This document shows, piece by piece, positions 27,890-53,714 of a stretch of 64,000 nt of DNA (the first letter of the stretch is position 1; each line of letters begins with the position of its first letter). The translations under genes and the position numbers were made by a program. Under the pieces are notes generated by a model that saw nothing but the letters and a program-made list of their open reading frames with translations, was not told the DNA's origin and did not search any database. The stretch is from a bacterium (lineage in GTDB: Bacteria > Zhuqueibacterota > Zhuqueibacteria > Zhuqueibacterales > Zhuqueibacteraceae): NCBI GenBank assembly GCA_044869275.1, contig JBIOXB010000075.1, positions 1-64,000 of the forward strand, in the 5' to 3' direction.

Positions 27890-29266
27890 CTACTCCTGCA
27901 GCAGCACGCCCATCGTGGCATGGAGCTGCGCATACGCGATCATGCTGTCGTATTTAGCGCTGATAAAGGTGGAGCGTGCGCGGGTCAAATTGGCCTGCGC
28001 ATTGATAATGTCCAGCAGCGTGCCCGCGCCGACGCGATAGCGCTCTTGCGCCAGCCGCAGATCTTCCTGTGCGGAGACGAGATTGTCACTGTTGATGGCG
28101 GTGATTTCTTTCCAGGCGCGCAGCGCCAGCAGCGCCTGTTCCGCTTCTTGCCGCAACGTGCGCAGCCGGTCGGCGTAATCTTCTTCAGCAATGTGATAAA
28201 GGAGCGATTGGCGTTGCACTTCGGCGCGGTCGGAAAAACCATTAAACAGATTCCAGCGCAAGCCCAGGCCAATTGTTCCAGTCCAGTTCTTGCTGAAATC
28301 GCCATAGACCAGCCGGGCTTCGTTGTGGCCGCGGCTATAATTCGCATTGAGGCCTAAGCTGGGCAAAAAAGCCGTGCGCGCGATACCTTTGCCGAATTCT
28401 GCGCGCCGCATTTCATACCGCACACTTTGCAGCTCCGGATTCTTTTCCACCGTTATATTGACGACTTCATCCAAAGTGTATTCGCGAAAGGCAGGGACTT
28501 CTTCGATATCAACGATGCTGAGCTCGGTGCCCGCTTGCCTGCCCATGGCCACGTTCAATAAGTCGCGCGTGTTCGTAACCCGGTTTTGCTGGGTGATCAG
28601 ATTGATGCGATCATTGCCGTGCGTCGTCCGCGCGCGGAACACATCGCCCTGCGCCACCGAGCCGATTTCGTACATACTCTCCGTGCGTTTGAGCTGTTCG
28701 TCACTCGATTTTGAGGCCTCTTCATAGACTGACAAAAGCTGCAGTTCCTTCAGATAGCCCAAATAGCGTTGATAGACCAGTAAAATCGTGCTTTGTTTGA
28801 TTGATTCGTAGCTCTTAATGCTGCTTTCCTCTGCGGCATCGGCCTCGCGGATGCGGTTCCAATTGGCGCCAAAATTAAAAATCGGCATGCTGAAATCGAG
28901 CCGGCCGGAATGGGAATTGGTGCTATAGCCATCTTGCGTTGCCGACCGGCGCTCGAAAATGGCGTTGCTGTCCGCGTCAAAACCCACGAGCACGTTCTCC
29001 TGAATATCGCGTTCGCCCGCCTGTGTTCGCGAGGAGCCGAGCGAAAGATCAAGGGAGGGTAAAATTCCAGACCGCGCCGCTGTCACTTGCGTGCCGGCAA
29101 TGCGGCTGCGGCGCTCGGTGTTGCGCAACTCGGAATTGTTCTGTAGAGCAAGCTGAATGCACTCCTTTATCGTCAGCGGCTGGGCGTTTTGTGCCAAGGC
29201 CGGATCGAGGGATGGCAAAAGCAGCAACATTGCAAGCAGGTACGAAAAAGAATTCTTCACGGCCAT
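27890..29266 (-). CDS. TolC-family outer membrane efflux protein
   Basis: Signal peptide; ALQNN.EL, LPSL.L, ERYRVGAGTLLD; start at 29266 or GTG at 29260. Confidence 0.88.
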   Translation of the reverse strand: MAVKNSFSYLLAMLLLLPSLDPALAQNAQPLTIKECIQLALQNNSELRNTERRSRIAGTQVTAARSGILPSLDLSLGSSRTQAGERDIQENVLVGFDADSNAIFERRSATQDGYSTNSHSGRLDFSMPIFNFGANWNRIREADAAEESSIKSYESIKQSTILLVYQRYLGYLKELQLLSVYEEASKSSDEQLKRTESMYEIGSVAQGDVFRARTTHGNDRINLITQQNRVTNTRDLLNVAMGRQAGTELSIVDIEEVPAFREYTLDEVVNITVEKNPELQSVRYEMRRAEFGKGIARTAFLPSLGLNANYSRGHNEARLVYGDFSKNWTGTIGLGLRWNLFNGFSDRAEVQRQSLLYHIAEEDYADRLRTLRQEAEQALLALRAWKEITAINSDNLVSAQEDLRLAQERYRVGAGTLLDIINAQANLTRARSTFISAKYDSMIAYAQLHATMGVLLQE

Positions 29267-48584: not shown

Positions 48585-49757
48585 CTAAAACTGAACCGTC
48601 TTTTTCGATGACTTCACCAACTCGCTCACCGTTTGCAAAACCAGCGAAGCCGGCGAAACACGATCCACTTCGATTTCGATGGCACCGGTAAGGCCGTGTT
48701 GCAAGAGGAATGTTGGATTTTGCTGCGGCTGCACGCTGCACTCGACGCGGAATTTGCCGTCACGCGGCTCGCTGGCGACGTTGCCGACTTGCGCCGCGAG
48801 AATGCCGAATTGCGTCCATGGGTAAGCATCCAAACGCATGCTGGCCGGTTGTCCAGAGCGAATGCGTCCCAAGGCCCGACCGACGGCAAAATTCGCCACG
48901 ATGCGAACCTCGCCCGAGGGCACGATCGTCGCCAGCTTGTCGCCGGGTTTTACGACTCCGCCAACCTGCAGCTCTGTGGTCTCACCGATGCGGCCGCTGA
49001 TCGGTGCGTGAATAAATTGCTCTTGAATCTCGAGCTGCTCGCGCGCAATCGTTTTTTCCGTGGTGGCAATTTGACCTTCGAACAGAGCCACTTCACGATT
49101 CAAGCGCTCGAGCTTGGCTTCCTGATCGCTCGTTTTGGTGCCCTGCTCGTTTTGCATTCGGCTGGCCGTCAATCGCAGCGCTTCGGCGGCCGCACGCGAT
49201 CGGGTAGCATTGGCCTCAGCGCGGCGAAATTCCACTTCCGAAATCAGCCCGCGTTTAAAAAGCTCCCGCATGCGCTCCGCTTCCTTTTCGGCCAATTGGG
49301 CGGAAGTCTCGGCTTCGAGCTGGCGCGCACTGGCCTCTTTCACAGCTGTCGGCGCAGCTTGGAGCTCCTGCTCATACGCTCGCGCCTGCGCGCTGACTTC
49401 ATTGCGCAACGCCGCGAGCTGATTCTGCAATCCGGCCAGATGAGATCTTTGCTCTTCCAAATGCAGCTTGTGCTCTTCGGTATCCAATTCCACGAGAACG
49501 TCGCCGGCAGTTACTTCCGCGCCGAGCTGCAAGCGCGTTTGCACAACACGGCCGCCGAACTGCACGGCCACCGGATGCACCGCGCTTTCCACTTCCAACC
49601 GCGCGGTCTCACTGGTTTCATATAACGCAACGCGCGCCAGCAACAGCCACAGTGTCCAGACGATTAACAGCGCCAGCACCGTCAAAACCGCGAGATTGGC
49701 GCGGCGAAAACCATCCAATTCAAGTGAACGAAGTGACCGAGAGAAAGATATAGACAT
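48585..49757 (-). CDS. HlyD-family membrane fusion (adaptor) protein
   Basis: N-terminal TM, lipoyl half-motifs (V.AGDVLVELD; APISG.I; V.PGD.L), long coiled coil, AYPW..FG. Confidence 0.92.
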   Translation of the reverse strand: MSISFSRSLRSLELDGFRRANLAVLTVLALLIVWTLWLLLARVALYETSETARLEVESAVHPVAVQFGGRVVQTRLQLGAEVTAGDVLVELDTEEHKLHLEEQRSHLAGLQNQLAALRNEVSAQARAYEQELQAAPTAVKEASARQLEAETSAQLAEKEAERMRELFKRGLISEVEFRRAEANATRSRAAAEALRLTASRMQNEQGTKTSDQEAKLERLNREVALFEGQIATTEKTIAREQLEIQEQFIHAPISGRIGETTELQVGGVVKPGDKLATIVPSGEVRIVANFAVGRALGRIRSGQPASMRLDAYPWTQFGILAAQVGNVASEPRDGKFRVECSVQPQQNPTFLLQHGLTGAIEIEVDRVSPASLVLQTVSELVKSSKKTVQF

Positions 49758-49886: not shown

Positions 49887-51266
49887 TTACATGAACTCCA
49901 ATTCCGGATTGCCAAGCAGCGTGATACTCTCCGTATTTCTTATGATCTGCGTATCTCCCTCGAGCACAGCAACCACGGCGGATTGAATAATTTCAAAGCA
50001 TCTTTCTTTTGGTAAACCGATGATCGCAAGAGGGAAAGACCCGATAATGACCAGTAGGGGAGTGCGAACATAGTGTTTCGCGGCATTCCGCGCTTCGAAC
50101 ACCAGGGCGTCACCGAAGGCTTCCTCCAAGCCGGGCCGAACGACGCCTTCGAACCACGCGCAAGAATTGCATCCCCAGCGTTTGTAAACGACGATATGCG
50201 CTTTGCCTTTTGGAACCTCAATTCCCTCCTGAATCACTGACCGCACCAATTTGTGCGCTCCGTAGCTCAAGCGCCGGTTCGTGATCTGGCACGCTATCCG
50301 CACCGCTGCCCAGGTCAAACCGAAAGCGATTCCCGCCGTGCCCGCTAAGCTGGCGAGCTGCGCGTTGCTCGATTTTGTTGCCGTCAGAGAGGCCGCCATA
50401 GCGACCATTGCGGAGAATCCCACCATTAAACAGGGCATGCAAAGAATACGTTGCTTAAGGAGACGGCTCAACAAGAAAGCATGCGCACCCATCGCAACAA
50501 AGATGCCCACGAGGATGGCAAAATGGCCGAGGGTATGCAACGTGCCGGCCCATAGCACGGAGTACAAACCGGTTCCCAGCCATGCCAAAGGCAATCCACC
50601 CAACAAGCTGGTGGCGCGGTCACAGGAAACGCAGTTTTTGGCCAACAGCGCTGACCATAGGGAGCCGCCAAAACAAACCGCCAAAGCCGTCAATGCCAAC
50701 CATGATGGTTTCTGTCTCGCCGATAACATCCACGGTAAATGGTCAAAAGTTGCCATGAGCGTTGCCACAGCCACGATTCCCACACTCAGACCAAAGACCA
50801 GCCGGGGGCCGGCGCGTCGCAGGTCTCTTAACTCCTTCAGCGCCTGCTGCTCAGCATCGTGATCGCGGCTCAGCACCACCACCTCTCCGGTCCAGCGTTG
50901 GCAGAATTGTTCGCGGGAAAGAGTGACCAATCCAACGGCGGGATCAGCGATGAATGCTTCGCGATCGTCAACCTGATGCAGAACGACGAAACATTCGCGC
51001 GCGTTTTCCTTGAAGACCATGATTGCAGGTAGAGCCACTGATGGGAGCTCCTCGTAAGGGCCTTCCATGGCCACTGCACTGAGACCGTACTGGCGGGCTG
51101 TCCCCAGCAGCAGCGCTAGCTCTTCGATTTTATCGGCATTGCCGAGAAGACGCATCTCTTGAAGGCCGATTGGACTGTGAAGATGCTGTGCGACAATGGC
51201 CAGGGCCGCCGCGCCATTTTCTTGGGGCCGCCCTTGCCGAACGCAAAGAAGATTTTGCTCAATCAA
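49887..51266 (-). CDS. Inactive C39-like domain + VKOR-like membrane domain + thioredoxin-like domain fusion
   Basis: Q...ENGAAAL (Cys to Asn), ECFVVL (His to Cys), ADP..G; CVSC...GLP.A.LG...Y and LCMPC; GCNSC; SD AAGGAG 10 nt before TTG. Confidence 0.8.
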   Translation of the reverse strand: MIEQNLLCVRQGRPQENGAAALAIVAQHLHSPIGLQEMRLLGNADKIEELALLLGTARQYGLSAVAMEGPYEELPSVALPAIMVFKENARECFVVLHQVDDREAFIADPAVGLVTLSREQFCQRWTGEVVVLSRDHDAEQQALKELRDLRRAGPRLVFGLSVGIVAVATLMATFDHLPWMLSARQKPSWLALTALAVCFGGSLWSALLAKNCVSCDRATSLLGGLPLAWLGTGLYSVLWAGTLHTLGHFAILVGIFVAMGAHAFLLSRLLKQRILCMPCLMVGFSAMVAMAASLTATKSSNAQLASLAGTAGIAFGLTWAAVRIACQITNRRLSYGAHKLVRSVIQEGIEVPKGKAHIVVYKRWGCNSCAWFEGVVRPGLEEAFGDALVFEARNAAKHYVRTPLLVIIGSFPLAIIGLPKERCFEIIQSAVVAVLEGDTQIIRNTESITLLGNPELEFM

Positions 51267-51303
51267 GATGCAAATGCTCCTTTTCTTCTTCTTTCATACG
51301 GCG

Positions 51304-51338
51304 GGCGGGCAGTCCCTAATCAATCGGAGCTGCCCGCC
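51304..51338 (-). terminator. Hairpin 3' of peptide gene A (no U tract)
   Basis: GGCGGGCAG / CTGCCCGCC inverted repeat. Confidence 0.5.
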
Positions 51339-51355
51339 ACCGAAGACCCTGTAGA

Positions 51356-51412
51356 TTAGCGCCAGCAACCTCGGGGGCACGGACCGGCCTTGATGTTGGT
51401 TTTTACCTTCAT
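51356..51412 (-). CDS. Precursor peptide A, MKVKTNIKAG-PCPRGCWR (18 aa)
   Basis: Translated by hand; SD AAGGAG 6 nt upstream; leader shared with two neighbours. Confidence 0.88.
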   Translation of the reverse strand: MKVKTNIKAGPCPRGCWR

Positions 51413-51494
51413 GACGTTCTCCTTATGAGGGGTTGGGTTAACAGCTTTGTGGTTTGTTTTGTTTTACTTCTATTCTTTCGACTTCCACTTGTTT

Positions 51495-51520
51495 GATGCA
51501 ACTCGTATTGAAATTCCATA
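51495..51520 (-). promoter_or_regulatory. Conserved upstream motif, copy 1 (putative ECF promoter)
   Basis: TATGGAATTT-CAATACGAGT-TGCATC. Confidence 0.7.
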
Positions 51521-51548
51521 AGACCTTTTTCGTCGTTTGGGAGATCGC

Positions 51549-51577
51549 GACGAGTCCCGTTGACTTCGAGACTCGTC
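51549..51577 (-). terminator. Hairpin 3' of peptide gene B (no U tract)
   Basis: GACGAGTC / GACTCGTC stem, extendable to 11 bp with a G-U pair on the minus strand. Confidence 0.5.
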
Positions 51578-51589
51578 AGGAGCTGGCGC

Positions 51590-51646
51590 CTAGTTCATCG
51601 CCAGACCTTTGGGCTTGCCGGCTTTCACGTTCGTTTTTACCTTCAT
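51590..51646 (-). CDS. Precursor peptide B, MKVKTNVKAG-KPKGLAMN (18 aa)
   Basis: Translated by hand; SD AAGGAG 6 nt upstream. Confidence 0.88.
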   Translation of the reverse strand: MKVKTNVKAGKPKGLAMN

Positions 51647-51723
51647 GGCTTTCTCCTTCGAGAGTTTGGGGTTAATTGCTTCTGGTTTGGTTTCAGTTTT
51701 TTGTTTTCAACTTCCACATACTT

Positions 51724-51749
51724 GATGCAGCTTGTATCGAAATTCCATA
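51724..51749 (-). promoter_or_regulatory. Conserved upstream motif, copy 2 (putative ECF promoter)
   Basis: TATGGAATTT-CGATACAAGC-TGCATC. Confidence 0.7.
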
Positions 51750-51768
51750 AAATTTTCTTGTCTGTTTT

Positions 51769-51813
51769 TGAGAGCGCGCGGAGCGACCTTTTTGACCTCC
51801 AGCCGCGCTCTCA
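51769..51813 (-). terminator. Hairpin 3' of peptide gene C (no U tract)
   Basis: TGAGAGCGCG / CGCGCTCTCA plus inner GGAG/CTCC. Confidence 0.5.
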
Positions 51814-51831
51814 GCAGCGCCGGTGTCTTGC

Positions 51832-51894
51832 TTAGCGAATGTTCTGCGAAATGCACTTGTGGCAGCCGGCTTTCACGTTCGTTTTCACCTTCAT
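51832..51894 (-). CDS. Precursor peptide C, MKVKTNVKAG-CHKCISQNIR (20 aa)
   Basis: Translated by hand; SD GAGGTG upstream. Confidence 0.88.
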   Translation of the reverse strand: MKVKTNVKAGCHKCISQNIR

Positions 51895-51978
51895 GACTCA
51901 CCTCGTTGGTTTGGGTTTGAACTGCTATCTTTGTGAGTTGATTCTCTTCTGCCTTCATTTCCTGCTTTCACTCACAGA

Positions 51979-52004
51979 GATGCACCCACCACAAAAATTC
52001 CACA
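51979..52004 (-). promoter_or_regulatory. Conserved upstream motif, copy 3 (putative ECF promoter)
   Basis: TGTGGAATTT-TTGTGGTGGG-TGCATC. Confidence 0.7.
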
Positions 52005-52234
52005 AAAGTTCTCTAAAAATTTTGCAGGCTTGACAAAACAGGCAAATTGTGCAATATTATACCGCTTTCAGATTCCCACCGGGTTTAATGAAAACGAGGT
52101 TTTGAGCTTTTTCGCCTATTTTGTCTTTAGCCCGTAAAGCATGCGGCTAATCCCTGCTTTCATTTGCCACATTTTCTAACAGAAGCATTTAGCCACGCTA
52201 CGCGTGATGATTCGAAGATTCAGGAGTTACAAAA

Positions 52235-52825
52235 TTGCCCCTTATAATTGATCGAAAAGCTGAAGTCGCACTTTCAGATATAGAATTGATTGCGCGGTAC
52301 AGGGAATCCCGAGATGTGGCTTACCCGGGCGTGCTCTTCCAGCGTTATGCCCACTTGGTTCTGGGTATTTGCTTGAAGTATCTCAAGAACGAAGAGGATA
52401 GTAAAGACGCGGCCATGGAACTGTTCGAGAATCTCACCGAAATGCTGGTGAAACACGAGATCACCAATTTCAAAAGCTGGTTGCATACCACCACGAAAAA
52501 TCATTGCCTGATGAAGCTGCGTAAGCCGGAAGCCAAAGCCATCAGACGAAATTTGGAAGGCGTGGATGAAAGTTTATTTATGGAAAATCCCGAGTCCGAG
52601 CATCTTATAGTAGAAGAAATGCGTGATTTACAAATCCGCCATTTGGGAACGGCCTTACCACGGTTGAACGAAGAACAGAGGGTTTGCATCGAATTGTTTT
52701 ATTTGCAGGGAAAAAGCTATCAAGAGGTGGCGGAAACCACCGGATATAGTTTGAATCAAGTCAAGAGCCATATCCAAAACGGAAAGAGAAACTTGAAGAA
52801 CTTTTTGACGAATGTGAAGGAATAA
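52235..52825 (+). CDS. ECF sigma factor
   Basis: SD.ELI, D.KD, FKSWL....KNHC (region 2); L.EEQR..IELFY....SYQEVA...G.....VKS...NGKR (region 4). Confidence 0.93.
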   Translation: MPLIIDRKAEVALSDIELIARYRESRDVAYPGVLFQRYAHLVLGICLKYLKNEEDSKDAAMELFENLTEMLVKHEITNFKSWLHTTTKNHCLMKLRKPEAKAIRRNLEGVDESLFMENPESEHLIVEEMRDLQIRHLGTALPRLNEEQRVCIELFYLQGKSYQEVAETTGYSLNQVKSHIQNGKRNLKNFLTNVKE

Positions 52826-52829
52826 AGCG

Positions 52830-53714
52830 ATGCTGGTTGCATTTGAGAATGTGAACGCCGCGGACGAAAGAACGACTCCGTGTTTGAGTTTCGAACAAAT
52901 GGTGGGTTATGAGGAAAAAACCTTATCCCCGGCGCAATATGCTGCAGTTGATGAGCACTTGACGCAGTGTGAGCTTTGCAGCGAGGCCATGGAAGGCTTT
53001 GCCGCTTTTCCGGATAAAGCCCGGCGGTCGTTCTTGGTGCAAGAGCTGCACGAGGAGATTCAGAGAAGATCCCTGCCGGAAGTTGCACCGGAATCTGAGC
53101 CTACATGGTCCGAACGACTCGCAGGAGTGGTGCGATCGGCAAAAAGCTGGCTTGCCGGAACGATGAAAAATTCCCACTCGATTTTGATCACACCGCGATA
53201 CGGTGTGAAGCTGGCTTATGCTATGGCAACGACTTTCTTGGTCGGCGTAGTTTCGGTAATTTATCTGAATCGCGAGACGCCGGGCGAGAAGTTGTTTGCT
53301 TCATACTTTCAGCCTTATCCCAACCTCGCCTCCTCCGTGCGCGGCGAGCAAGACGCAAGCAAATTGCAGGAGGCTTTGCAATCCTATGATGCGCAAGATT
53401 TCGAGGCCGCGCTGCAGGAGCTGCGAGACATTCTCGCCTCCCAGCCCAACAACGTCATGGCGAATTTTTATGCCGGTATTTCTTATTTGAATCTCAAAGA
53501 AACTGAACGAGCGATTGCCAGTCTGCAAAAAGTGCTTGCGCTCAACGATGCGAAGTTTTCAGCACCGGCGCTTTGGTATCTGGCGCTCGCTTACCTGCAG
53601 CAAGATCAATTGGTGCAAGCACGTGCCACTCTGGAAGGCATTACCGCCAATCAACACCTGTACCAAGCGCAAGCCATAAAGCTGCTGGAGCAACTTCGTT
53701 CCGGTGGCCAGTGA
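52830..53714 (+). CDS. Anti-sigma factor: zf-HC2 (HxxxCxxC), TM helix, C-terminal TPR domain
   Basis: HLTQCELC; TM AYAMATTFLVGVVSVIYL; TPR FYAGISYL and WYLALAYL; starts 4 bp after the sigma stop codon. Confidence 0.85.
   Translation: MLVAFENVNAADERTTPCLSFEQMVGYEEKTLSPAQYAAVDEHLTQCELCSEAMEGFAAFPDKARRSFLVQELHEEIQRRSLPEVAPESEPTWSERLAGVVRSAKSWLAGTMKNSHSILITPRYGVKLAYAMATTFLVGVVSVIYLNRETPGEKLFASYFQPYPNLASSVRGEQDASKLQEALQSYDAQDFEAALQELRDILASQPNNVMANFYAGISYLNLKETERAIASLQKVLALNDAKFSAPALWYLALAYLQQDQLVQARATLEGITANQHLYQAQAIKLLEQLRSGGQ

Follow-up and report, generated by a model that had tools for sequence, protein, structure and literature searches.

Three tiny genes with a common ten-residue leader near a C39 peptidase-ABC exporter: candidate precursors of very small exported peptides

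We analysed a 64,000-nucleotide stretch of a bacterial genome (the window; the genome itself is referred to as G000), in which three tiny genes lie on the minus strand, with the genes for a 459-aa protein and a three-gene exporter on one side and divergently oriented regulatory genes on the other (Table 1). The preliminary description had reported three minus-strand ORFs at this place, and its coordinates and translations were matched exactly when the sequence was read again. All three ORFs begin with the 10-residue leader MKVKTN[VI]KAG, which is followed by 8-10 variable residues. The three variable cores are all cationic, and two of them (cores 1 and 3) contain a pair of cysteines.

Table 1. 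Features of the locus, in order of their position in the window (aa, amino acids; TM, transmembrane).
Feature	Position	Strand	Details
Second ABC subunit, 732 aa	43619..45817	-	without peptidase domain
C39 peptidase-ABC exporter, 903 aa	45834..48545	-	Cys/His/Asp intact
HlyD-type membrane fusion protein, 390 aa	48585..49757	-	
459-aa protein	49887..51266	-	C39-like domain, extra TM helix, VKOR-like 5-TM core, thioredoxin-like domain
Hairpin 3' of gene 3	51299..51342	-	-29.8 kcal/mol, z -3.2; kept in G014
Tiny gene 3	51356..51412	-	MKVKTNIKAGPCPRGCWR = MKVKTNIKAG + PCPRGCWR; 18 codons + stop
Promoter-like box, unit 3	51495..51518	-	motif
Hairpin 3' of gene 2	51545..51581	-	-21.4 kcal/mol, z -3.0
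Tiny gene 2	51590..51646	-	MKVKTNVKAGKPKGLAMN = MKVKTNVKAG + KPKGLAMN; 18 codons + stop
Promoter-like box, unit 2	51724..51747	-	motif
Hairpin 3' of gene 1	51769..51813	-	GC-rich, no U tract; -26 kcal/mol, z -1.4
Tiny gene 1	51832..51894	-	MKVKTNVKAGCHKCISQNIR = MKVKTNVKAG + CHKCISQNIR; 20 codons + stop
Promoter-like box, unit 1	51979..52002	-	motif; TGGAATTT-N11-GCATC
ECF-type sigma factor, 196 aa	52235..52825	+	divergent; TIGR02937 83.5 bits vs cut-off 42.9
Candidate anti-sigma factor, 294 aa	52830..53714	+	HxxxCxxC, one TM helix, extracytoplasmic TPR domain
TPR-CHAT protein, 1048 aa	53795..56941	+	lipoprotein-type signal peptide

Each ORF is preceded by a Shine-Dalgarno (SD) sequence, as had been claimed (GAGGTG or AAGGAG, located 6-7 nt 5' of the ATG), and the coding minus strand is rich in A (AT skew of -0.276 on the plus strand over positions 51000-51999). 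The back-translated leader pattern occurs exactly three times in the window, against 0.00 expected from 100 shuffles, and no fourth site was found in the 6.67-Mb genome with up to three mismatches allowed. The differences among the three leaders consist of third-position changes and one Val/Ile exchange, in agreement with their earlier characterization as synonymous or conservative. The selection at the protein level that had been proposed is borne out in a related genome, G014, where the ORF1 orthologue is identical at 20/20 residues despite eight nucleotide changes in six codons; all eight are synonymous, and one Ser codon has switched from TCG to AGT. Since the ORF1 product has been kept identical through synonymous changes only, the tiny ORFs are, as judged from their sequences, real genes, and the comparison shows purifying selection acting on them at this level. 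Between the two genomes, DNA identity is 61% over the whole of unit 1 and 82% over unit 3. Core 1 is strictly kept between the genera, and in gene 3 of G014, substitutions and a 6-nt indel have turned the core into PRWRWW. G014 also shows synteny for the sigma, anti-sigma and CHAT genes, with 84% identity between the TPR-CHAT proteins. An NCBIfam hit of ORF1 to the N-terminus of ribosomal protein L36, below the threshold (E 0.0097, 16 vs 22.7 bits), was attributed to chance, as cores 2 and 3 lack it.

The promoter-like box accompanies every unit, and in its strict form it occurs in G000 in these three units only; G000 and G014 together carry it in 5/5 peptide units. A loose form of the pattern was too degenerate for defining a regulon. 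The promoter and terminator scan found neither a canonical sigma-70 promoter nor a U-tailed terminator for the three units. The motif suggests that the boxes are ECF-type promoters, and separate transcription of the three tiny genes forms part of the explanation that we favor below. Rfam returned nothing relevant at the locus or anywhere in the window, and no tRNAs were found in the window. The sequencing runs listed for this DNA were three soil DNA runs from a single study, one of which may be the source, and included no RNA run.

A pattern search of the kind that the preliminary description had proposed was run on a collection of genome contigs, with Gly fixed at position 10 and position 9 restricted to Ala or Ser. 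It yielded 98 stretches, corresponding to 88 distinct loci that hold 140 ORFs (139 of them complete) with a median length of 18 aa; 119 ORFs are no longer than 30 aa, and 132 are preceded by an SD-like sequence. At the four-fold degenerate sites of V3, T5, A9, and G10, all four codons are in use. Position 9 is Ala in 128 ORFs and Ser in 12, a constancy that is partly built into the search pattern, and the residue after position 10 is Gly in just 29/140. A further 67 neighboring ORFs carry only conservative variants of the leader. The cores of most family members comprise only 5-10 residues, the tag repeats internally in multi-core precursors, and in core sub-families of the xxLWGx type, 28 distinct DNA versions encode cores that keep their length and residues. 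The loci are spread over many phyla, with Acidobacteriota, Chloroflexota, Planctomycetota, and methanotrophs among them; Methyloglobulus morosus KoM1 (locus L021) is an example of a carrier in culture. Three matches were set aside as due to chance, namely L004 and L005, which lie inside longer frames, and L093, which belongs to a 75-aa protein whose N-terminus, we presume, resembles ribosomal protein L24. Genes of 15-20 codons escape standard annotation, and a collection of 15 billion proteins yielded only family members of at least 29 aa, all labelled "hypothetical." No NCBIfam family covers the tiny peptides, the exact leader strings appeared in none of the open-access papers searched, and open-access searches on PCAT/Acidobacteria and on unannotated double-glycine peptides returned nothing on this leader family. 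The family is undescribed in the open-access papers searched and in NCBIfam.

The tiny genes had been placed directly upstream of a C39 export module. A C39 exporter is indeed nearby, but the immediate neighbor is the 459-aa protein, whose C39-like domain lacks the catalytic Cys, and the true C39-ABC exporter sits two genes beyond it. The catalytic Cys/His/Asp of this 903-aa protein align with those of PCAT1; in exporters of this family, the triad is invariant in 22/22 and the C39 domain is 55-70% identical across phyla. Forty-two loci have 10 kb or more of sequence. Of these, a C39-ABC/ABC pair lies within 6 kb of the leader in 26, HlyD and ABC are both found within 6 kb in 19, and 16 have no exporter within 6 kb. 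The usual gene order is peptide(s), HlyD, a C39-ABC protein of about 900 aa and an ABC protein of about 710 aa, and some family members follow the exporter, lie far from it, or are encoded on the other strand. These comparisons uphold the proposed link to C39 export and show, at the level of gene content, a large family tied to this type of exporter. Pfam gave nothing usable for an insert of about 190 aa in the 903-aa protein or for an N-terminal domain of about 270 aa in the 732-aa subunit. TolC-family genes are present in G000.

The locus resembles double-glycine/PCAT systems (compared here were ComC-ComAB, class II microcins (MccV), bacteroidetocins, LahT, and PCAT1 substrates) in that the gene for a small precursor neighbors those for an HlyD-type adaptor and a C39-ABC protein with an intact triad, and in that the leader has a hydrophobic residue at -4. 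The pair of small residues at the leader end may be comparable to the GG, GA, or GS of double-glycine leaders. The leader has Ala-Gly at -2/-1, Val/Ile at -4, and Lys at -7. Unlike double-glycine leaders, which are 15-30 residues long, the tag has 10 residues and therefore no position -12, and it differs from them in its Ala-Gly end and its Lys at -7. According to the available portions of the sources, leaders measure 15-18 aa in class II microcins (PMC12219008) and 15 aa in bacteroidetocins (PMC6671954), and LahT150 requires hydrophobic residues at -4, -7, and -12, with a charged residue at -7 leading to failure (PMC6363468). Ala-Gly, which ends 3/3 leaders in the window, is not among the leader-end pairs named in the available portion of PMC12219008. 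The tag is shorter than any characterized double-glycine leader found in this comparison, within the accessible text of the papers. The exporter also departs from these systems: it consists of two paired subunits, and no family model names their extra domains. Of the earlier suggestion that a constant leader and a variable core mark RiPP or pheromone precursors, the connection to export stands; a classical RiPP maturase was not found at the locus, where the 459-aa protein is the only candidate modifier, and the leader breaks the double-glycine rules. The three-gene architecture also recalls the NHLP/Nif11 export triad, and TIGR03794 (HlyD), TIGR03796 (ABC with peptidase), and TIGR03797 (ABC without peptidase) are among the best NCBIfam matches of the three proteins. 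However, the scores are far under the curated cut-offs (175.4 vs 853.3, 104.4 vs 709.4, and 49.6 vs 156.2 bits), and the substrates here are without an NHLP or Nif11 leader domain.

The 459-aa protein carries two CxxC motifs in its VKOR-like core and a CxxC together with a cis-Pro in its thioredoxin-like domain; its C39-like domain, to judge from the missing Cys, is catalytically dead and not a protease. A structure model based on a 45-sequence alignment reached a pLDDT of 92.4 and replaced a first model from three sequences, which had a pLDDT of 50.6 and uninformative membrane matches. The VKOR structure 4nv2_A matches model residues 185-330 with a Z of 13.1 (rmsd 2.8 Å, 143 aligned residues), Z 13 being at the border that the structure-comparison tool states for helical bundles, and Foldseek matched 4nv5_B with a probability of 0.99 over 258 columns. 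Comparisons with thioredoxins gave Z values of about 9, and those with C39 domains 16-18. The residues C212/C215, C276/C279, C366/C369, and P403 are invariant in 45/45 sequences of the family, and relatives of the 459-aa protein include 37 of full length. In the model, one Cys pair of the VKOR fold lies in a loop, a CxxC sits at helix 4, and a thioredoxin-like domain comes after the fold. The 5-helix core and this arrangement are shared with the Synechococcus VKOR-thioredoxin fusion (PDB 4nv2/4nv5), from which the 459-aa protein differs by the added N-terminal dead C39-like domain and extra TM helix. The Pfam VKOR family (PF07884) matched 0/45 family members at E <= 0.01 and did not match the window protein at E <= 10. 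The distribution of Lys and Arg predicts that all catalytic cysteines face the cytoplasm. In canonical VKOR, the orientation of the catalytic cysteines is the reverse. The modelled fold makes the protein a candidate disulfide-forming enzyme, which fits the Cys pairs of two cores. It may be likened, in its locus, to the "thiol oxidoreductase" of bacteroidetocins, which in the available text (PMC6671954) likewise belongs to a leader-peptide export locus with Cys-pair peptides. The 459-aa protein was not found in G014, although G014 encodes the same CHKC peptide, nor in five other leader-bearing genomes, including L019 with its many Cys-pair cores; as far as these gene complements indicate, it is not a general partner of the leader peptides.

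The divergent genes show the features of an ECF sigma/ZAS anti-sigma pair, with sigma-70 regions 2 and 4 in the first product, then HxxxCxxC and a TM helix, the motif being read in the translation. A comparable system is DdvS/DdvA of Myxococcus xanthus, in which an ECF sigma factor is paired with a ZAS transmembrane anti-sigma factor bearing a periplasmic TPR-CHAT domain, and the signal for DdvA is unknown according to the available portion of the paper (PMC11506125). Both combine an ECF sigma factor, a ZAS motif with a single TM helix, extracytoplasmic TPR, and a CHAT caspase-like domain in one locus. Unlike in DdvA, two proteins make up the module here, a ZAS-TM-TPR protein of 294 aa and a TPR-CHAT lipoprotein of 1048 aa, and unlike for DdvS/DdvA, which the accessible text connects with CBASS or CRISPR defence, the likely regulon would be the peptide genes and the exporter. 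Kinase, TPR, or STAND genes occur in 15/42 long leader loci, and other leader loci have a sigma-54 activator or a histidine kinase. These neighboring regulators suggest a pheromone role for the tiny peptides.

Overall, we consider it probable that the three ORFs encode precursors of very small peptides, which would be tagged, cut by C39, and exported, and may serve as signals; for the signalling role taken alone, we put the chances somewhat below even. The 10-residue N-terminus, M-K-V-K-T-N-V/I-K-A-G, would be the export and cleavage tag, recognized on the cytoplasmic side by the C39 domain of the 903-aa exporter. Partners of this exporter would be the 732-aa ABC subunit, the HlyD adaptor, and a TolC-type channel whose gene lies outside the locus. 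Cleavage after Ala-Gly would release the cores CHKCISQNIR, KPKGLAMN, and PCPRGCWR (8-10 residues) for expulsion. The dead C39-like domain of the 459-aa protein probably binds the tag before the peptides are exported, while the VKOR-like and thioredoxin-like parts would oxidize the paired cysteines of cores 1 and 3 to a disulfide. Transcription of the peptide genes probably depends on the divergent sigma factor, given the ECF-type promoter box in front of every one of them. The TPR anti-sigma factor and the TPR-CHAT lipoprotein may sense the released peptides outside the cytoplasm, resulting in an auto-induction loop. We infer the cleavage site, export, disulfide formation, sigma dependence, and the signalling role. 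If the leader is an export tag, it would be the shortest PCAT-type leader, common to at least 88 loci, and would explain many "orphan" peptide exporters. With sigma factors, kinases, and STAND proteins as frequent neighbors, signalling by peptides among diderm bacteria of soil, which has long been a gap, becomes directly testable with synthetic 6-10-mers.

The peptides might instead be exported as proposed and act as microcin-like antimicrobials against competitors, which we regard as unlikely. It would agree with this role that class II microcins and bacteroidetocins leave Gram-negative bacteria via PCAT and HlyD (available portions of PMC12219008 and PMC6671954), that bacteroidetocin loci likewise include a dedicated thiol oxidoreductase (PMC6671954, in the part available), that the three cores are cationic and the G014 orthologue of core 3 is Arg/Trp-rich, and that core 3 diverges fast between flanks that are 82% identical, as in an arms race. 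However, core 1 is strictly conserved, no immunity-like gene was found in the 13-kb cassette, and unmodified cores of 6-10 residues are far below the known microcin length; many loci contain the sensory or regulatory genes described above instead.

We consider it quite improbable that, instead of serving as a cleavage signal for C39, the tag is read by another part of the export machinery, such as the insert of the 903-aa protein, the N-domain of the 732-aa subunit, or the dead C39-like domain, with the peptides leaving tagged or being cut elsewhere. The leader does violate the -7 and -12 rule of characterized C39 domains (PMC6363468, as far as available), its alternating V-K-T-N-V-K would suggest a strand and not the usual helix, and both ABC subunits carry extra domains without a Pfam match. 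On the other hand, the invariant triad and a C39 domain conserved across phyla are equalled by the conservation of the tag, the small Ala/Ser-Gly pair is constant at the tag end (in part through the search pattern), and the tag recurs inside poly-precursors, as expected for a cleavage site. The position of the ORFs upstream of the export genes, with a hairpin after each, would also be compatible with cis-regulatory leader peptides or attenuators, or with conserved RNA/DNA repeats, that control the export operon without a functional product. We assign hardly any probability to this explanation, against which stand the promoter-like box and hairpin belonging to every unit, third codon positions that are free to vary while residues are fixed, the varied placement of family members relative to the exporter (other strand, downstream, or remote), the constancy of the xxLWGx-type cores in length and residues, and the lack of a match to any Rfam family.

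The preferred reading, in which tagged precursors are cut and exported, can be extended to a circuit that we think possible but doubtful. A leader-guided, inverted VKOR-thioredoxin oxidase would cyclize the tagged precursors by disulfide formation in the cytoplasm, the exporter would cut and expel them, and the periplasmic TPR anti-sigma factor and TPR-CHAT caspase-like lipoprotein would sense them, their proteolysis freeing the ECF sigma factor for transcription of the peptide genes. A cytoplasmic oxidase would be needed in such a circuit, since peptides exported in a type-I-like manner do not meet the periplasmic Dsb system. If true, diderm bacteria would have a form of peptide quorum sensing not yet described in them, and the tag would amount to a minimal secretion signal found across phyla and serving several types of sensor (ECF/CHAT, ECF/Ser-Thr kinase, sigma-54 two-component, and STAND).

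The fusion of dead C39, VKOR, and thioredoxin domains suggests a general route to disulfides in peptides that bypass the periplasm. No open-access paper was found that joins vitamin K epoxide reductase, C39, and bacteriocin, and when metagenomes were scanned for proteins related to the 459-aa fusion, only ordinary active PCATs came up. In the ESM Atlas, clusters combining C39, VKOR, and Thioredoxin_4 may occur in Bacteroidota, as a lead (score 0.81).

Translation of the minus strand reproduced exactly the coordinates and products of the three tiny ORFs in the preliminary description, which had read them as a constant ten-residue leader (the tag) followed by hypervariable cores. Only these three sites of the window match the leader pattern, against an expectation of 0.00 from shuffling, and a search with the back-translated leader pattern found no fourth copy in the whole 6.67-Mb genome, even at 3 mismatches. 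The ORFs form tandem units of ~230-250 nt, each with a TGGAATTT-N11-GCATC box ~95 nt 5' of the ATG; the window has 3 copies of the box versus 0.02 expected, and the strict form of the box is limited within the genome to the three units. The 5' region of each unit is A/C-rich, with GAGGTG or AAGGAG 6-7 nt ahead of the ATG, in agreement with the Shine-Dalgarno (SD) sites and 5' composition described earlier, and 3' of each stop codon lies a hairpin that is GC-rich and lacks a U tract. No Rfam family matches the units. A sub-threshold NCBIfam match of ORF1 to the first 14 residues of ribosomal protein L36 (E 0.0097, 16 versus 22.7 bits) was judged to be due to chance because the cores of ORF2 and ORF3 do not share it.

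Features of the peptide units, the surrounding cassette and a distant TolC-family gene
Feature	Coordinates	Strand	Remarks
ORF1	51894-51832	minus	product MKVKTNVKAGCHKCISQNIR
ORF2	51646-51590	minus	product MKVKTNVKAGKPKGLAMN
ORF3	51412-51356	minus	product MKVKTNIKAGPCPRGCWR
Hairpin after ORF1		minus	-26 kcal/mol, z -1.4
Hairpin after ORF2		minus	-21.4 kcal/mol, z -3.0
Hairpin after ORF3		minus	-29.8 kcal/mol, z -3.2
459-aa protein	49887-51266	minus	downstream of peptide genes, same strand
HlyD adaptor	48585-49757	minus	downstream, same strand
C39-ABC transporter, 903 aa	45834-48545	minus	downstream, same strand
ABC protein without peptidase domain, 732 aa	43619-45817	minus	downstream, same strand
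ECF sigma factor	52235-52825	plus	divergent from peptide genes
294-aa protein	52830-53714	plus	HxxxCxxC motif, one TM helix, C-terminal TPR domain
TPR-CHAT protein, 1048 aa	53795-56941	plus	lipoprotein-type signal
TolC-family gene	27908-29167	minus	494-aa frame, ~15 kb from cassette

Selection at the protein level, proposed earlier, is borne out by a related genome (G014) from another genus of the same family, in which an ORF encodes exactly the ORF1 peptide through 8 base differences in 6 codons, all of them synonymous and including a TCG to AGT change of a Ser codon; the DNA of unit 1 is only 61% identical (135/221) between the two genomes. This ORF is one of two tiny ORFs in a syntenic locus (identity of sigma 64%, anti-sigma 52%, CHAT 84%, and HlyD 76%), and the box stands ahead of all five peptide units of the two genomes. 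Unit 3 has its orthologue in the second G014 unit (82% DNA identity, hairpin kept), the core of which is changed from PCPRGCWR to PRWRWW via a 6-nt indel and substitutions. The core of ORF1 is therefore under strict purifying selection and that of ORF3 is diversifying fast, and both patterns fit peptides rather than RNA. The identical orthologue with its synonymous changes, the PRWRWW orthologue, two of the five boxes, the synteny, and the 9 leader copies found in G014 all rest on this unpublished genome.

A search with a degenerate leader pattern against one genome per species, for which a rough information-content count predicts far fewer than one match by chance, returned 98 stretches, corresponding to 88 distinct loci and 140 distinct ORFs. 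Nearly all of these ORFs are complete (139) and preceded by an SD-like sequence (132); their median length is 18 aa (119 at most 30 aa, 4 above 60 aa), and they carry 109 different cores. Leader conservation within this set is circular, since for most leader codons the pattern admitted synonymous changes alone; non-circular support comes from the occurrence of all four codons at the 4-fold sites of the leader, from stops reached within a few codons, and from the recurrence of core sub-families. These include xxLWGx, with 30 copies in 28 DNA versions and 16 codons every time, as well as SVNWG, GGGNYTG, AGGAYPSG, xDxNG, and P-x-C-x-C types. The same loci hold 67 further SD-preceded ORFs whose leaders show conservative exchanges alone (K/R, V/I/L/M, T/S), apart from position 6, which is free. 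By record title, the loci belong mostly to Acidobacteriota lineages, and others include Chloroflexota, Planctomycetota, Methylococcales (among them Methyloglobulus morosus KoM1), Myxococcota, and Verrucomicrobiota. Tagged peptides ending in xDxNG/xDPNG (loci L006 in genome G016, L007, L011-L015 in G014, L025, L054, L062, and L083) often lie apart from any exporter and adjoin PQQ_2 beta-propeller, FG-GAP/ASPIC or MacB/FtsX genes. The exact leader strings had no match in the 8.4 million open-access papers searched, and NCBIfam holds no model for the peptides. Members of at least 29 aa are recorded only as 'hypothetical protein', and three members of at most 25 aa that were looked up had no database record.

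The link to an export module, also part of the preliminary description, is supported at the comparative level. We clustered the ORFs neighboring the leader loci and counted over the 42 loci whose DNA stretch is 10 kb or longer: 26 of them have one ABC cluster represented within 6 kb, and the ABC and HlyD clusters are both near in 19, while no exporter was found within reach of the remaining 16. The usual gene order is peptide(s), HlyD, a ~900-aa C39-ABC protein, and a ~710-aa ABC protein. The C39 domains of 22 leader-linked exporters are 55-70% identical across phyla and keep Cys, His, and Asp in 22/22; the 903-aa exporter of the window aligns with the catalytic residues of PCAT1. The window triad is similar to the NHLP/Nif11 export cassette, though its scores fall far short of the curated cut-offs for that cassette. 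In six Chloroflexota loci (L027, L028, L047, L048, L070, and L078), the HlyD-cluster member is a stub of 156-187 aa instead of the usual ~390-aa adaptor. The constant leader with variable cores is confirmed as an observation, and its interpretation as a precursor pattern gains comparative support. Leader peptides exported by C39 peptidase-containing ABC transporters (PCATs) are known as such; what is new is the minimal 10-residue tag. To this family the window adds an ECF/anti-sigma/CHAT control module and a putative enzyme combining dead-C39, VKOR-like, and thioredoxin parts.

Peptides, exporter, and regulators form a ~13-kb block bordered by housekeeping genes, with a G+C of 0.445-0.50 over the peptide and sigma genes (window 51000-53500) versus 0.53-0.60 in the flanks. 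The exporter is rare in this lineage, found in 2/125 genomes of the class and 2/167 of the phylum, namely this genome and G014, and the cassette was not found in a same-genus genome (G001, 99% complete, unpublished), on which the statement for the genus rests; the block thus has the behavior of an accessory cassette. The low G+C and the negative search of G001 suggest that it was acquired. The best exporter relatives outside this lineage are 52-56% identical. One of about ten TolC-family genes of the genome, that in the window, might provide an outer-membrane partner.

All tags end in Ala/Ser-Gly at positions 9-10, a constancy partly built into the search pattern, and the next residue is Gly in only 29/140; a cut after Gly10 is therefore the consistent reading. 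In some Blastocatellia loci, the tag is repeated inside longer precursors, between NHNQT-containing segments, as expected of a cleavage and recognition site. Longer precursors in which an LK[VI]K[ST]GVKAG-like tag is repeated between NHNQT segments (L016 7961-, L017 2795-5430, L045 8001-, L100, L044, and L075) look like poly-precursors giving several peptides. Characterized double-glycine leaders are longer, class II microcins being reported to have 15-18 aa (PMC12219008) and bacteroidetocins 15 aa (PMC6671954), and the last 14 leader residues are described as enough for LahT150 (PMC6363468). LahT150 is also reported to require hydrophobic residues at -4, -7, and -12 and to fail on substrates charged at -7 (PMC6363468). 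The short tag, with Val/Ile at -4, Lys at -7 and no -12 position, therefore points to a distinct recognition mode. It might be read through a variant form of C39 recognition or by another domain; we favor the former in view of the strong conservation of both the protease and the tag.

With regard to function, an extracytoplasmic location is predicted both for the TPR domain of the candidate anti-sigma (the 294-aa protein) and for the TPR-CHAT lipoprotein. The closest characterized system is DdvS/DdvA, where a ZAS anti-sigma bears a TPR-CHAT domain in the periplasm, and for which signal-induced CHAT proteolysis was proposed, the signal being unknown (PMC11506125); here, the module is divided between two proteins. 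Sensory genes recur beside the leader family: the third-largest neighbor cluster, represented in 15/42 long loci, comprises Ser/Thr kinases (7/10 sampled members, most with TPR) and NB-ARC/BTAD STAND proteins, and further neighbors are a PF07638 ECF sigma, a sigma-54 activator, and a histidine kinase. Judged from gene content, the peptides may tentatively be seen as signals that are exported and then act back on the sigma factor of their own locus, a possibility that we prefer to an antimicrobial role, which seems rather unlikely.

The 459-aa neighbor is modeled as a C39-like domain, catalytically dead, fused to a VKOR-like core and a domain of thioredoxin type. Its N-terminal domain has a C39 fold (Z 16-18 to PCAT1, ComA, and LahT), with Asn at the catalytic Cys position and Cys at the His position. 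An exhaustive search returned 37 representatives at E <= 1e-30, a family without a name. In an alignment of 45 relatives, the nucleophile Cys occurs in none of the 34 that have the C39-like domain (Ser 22, Asn 5, Thr 3, Gly 2, Arg 2), and C212/C215, C276/C279, C366/C369, H262, and P403 are invariant in 45/45. In the 45-sequence model (pLDDT 92.4, pTM 0.87), residues 185-330 match the structure of Synechococcus VKOR 4nv2_A (Z 13.1, 2.8 A, 143 residues) and residues 340-437 those of thioredoxins (Z about 9); Foldseek aligned 258 columns to 4nv5_B. Pfam VKOR was unrecognized in all 45 relatives, so that the core is a VKOR relative at the level of fold, not a family member by sequence. One additional TM helix precedes it. 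Over 35 full-length members, Lys and Arg are concentrated before this helix (3.2), in the first-Cys-pair loop (1.8), before the helix-4 CxxC (2.4), and behind the final helix (4.3), versus 0.3-0.7 in the other three loops. The positive-inside rule therefore predicts a cytoplasmic location for the dead C39-like domain, the thioredoxin-like domain, and all three CxxC motifs. The canonical VKOR orientation is the reverse.

The 459-aa protein might hold the tag of the uncut precursor and oxidize a Cys pair in the core, as present in two of the three window cores (CHKC and CPRGC), before export; such timing would make sense because the periplasm is skipped on this route. Neither G014, though it has the CHKC peptide, nor five other leader-bearing genomes, including that of L019, yielded the protein, which counts against a general role. 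L019 (8001-13350, a Terriglobia MAG) encodes nine peptides with the tag, and many of their cores are of a P-x-x-C-x3-5-C type resembling that of ORF3. Their genes flank a Ser/Thr kinase-TPR gene and a PF07638 ECF sigma on both sides and adjoin a HlyD/PCAT/ABC triad, and a search of the genome gave no dedicated oxidoreductase. Bacteroidetocin loci are reported to carry a thiol oxidoreductase required for full activity (PMC6671954). At lead level only, the ESM Atlas indicates C39-VKOR-Thioredoxin_4 clusters in Bacteroidota (score 0.81).
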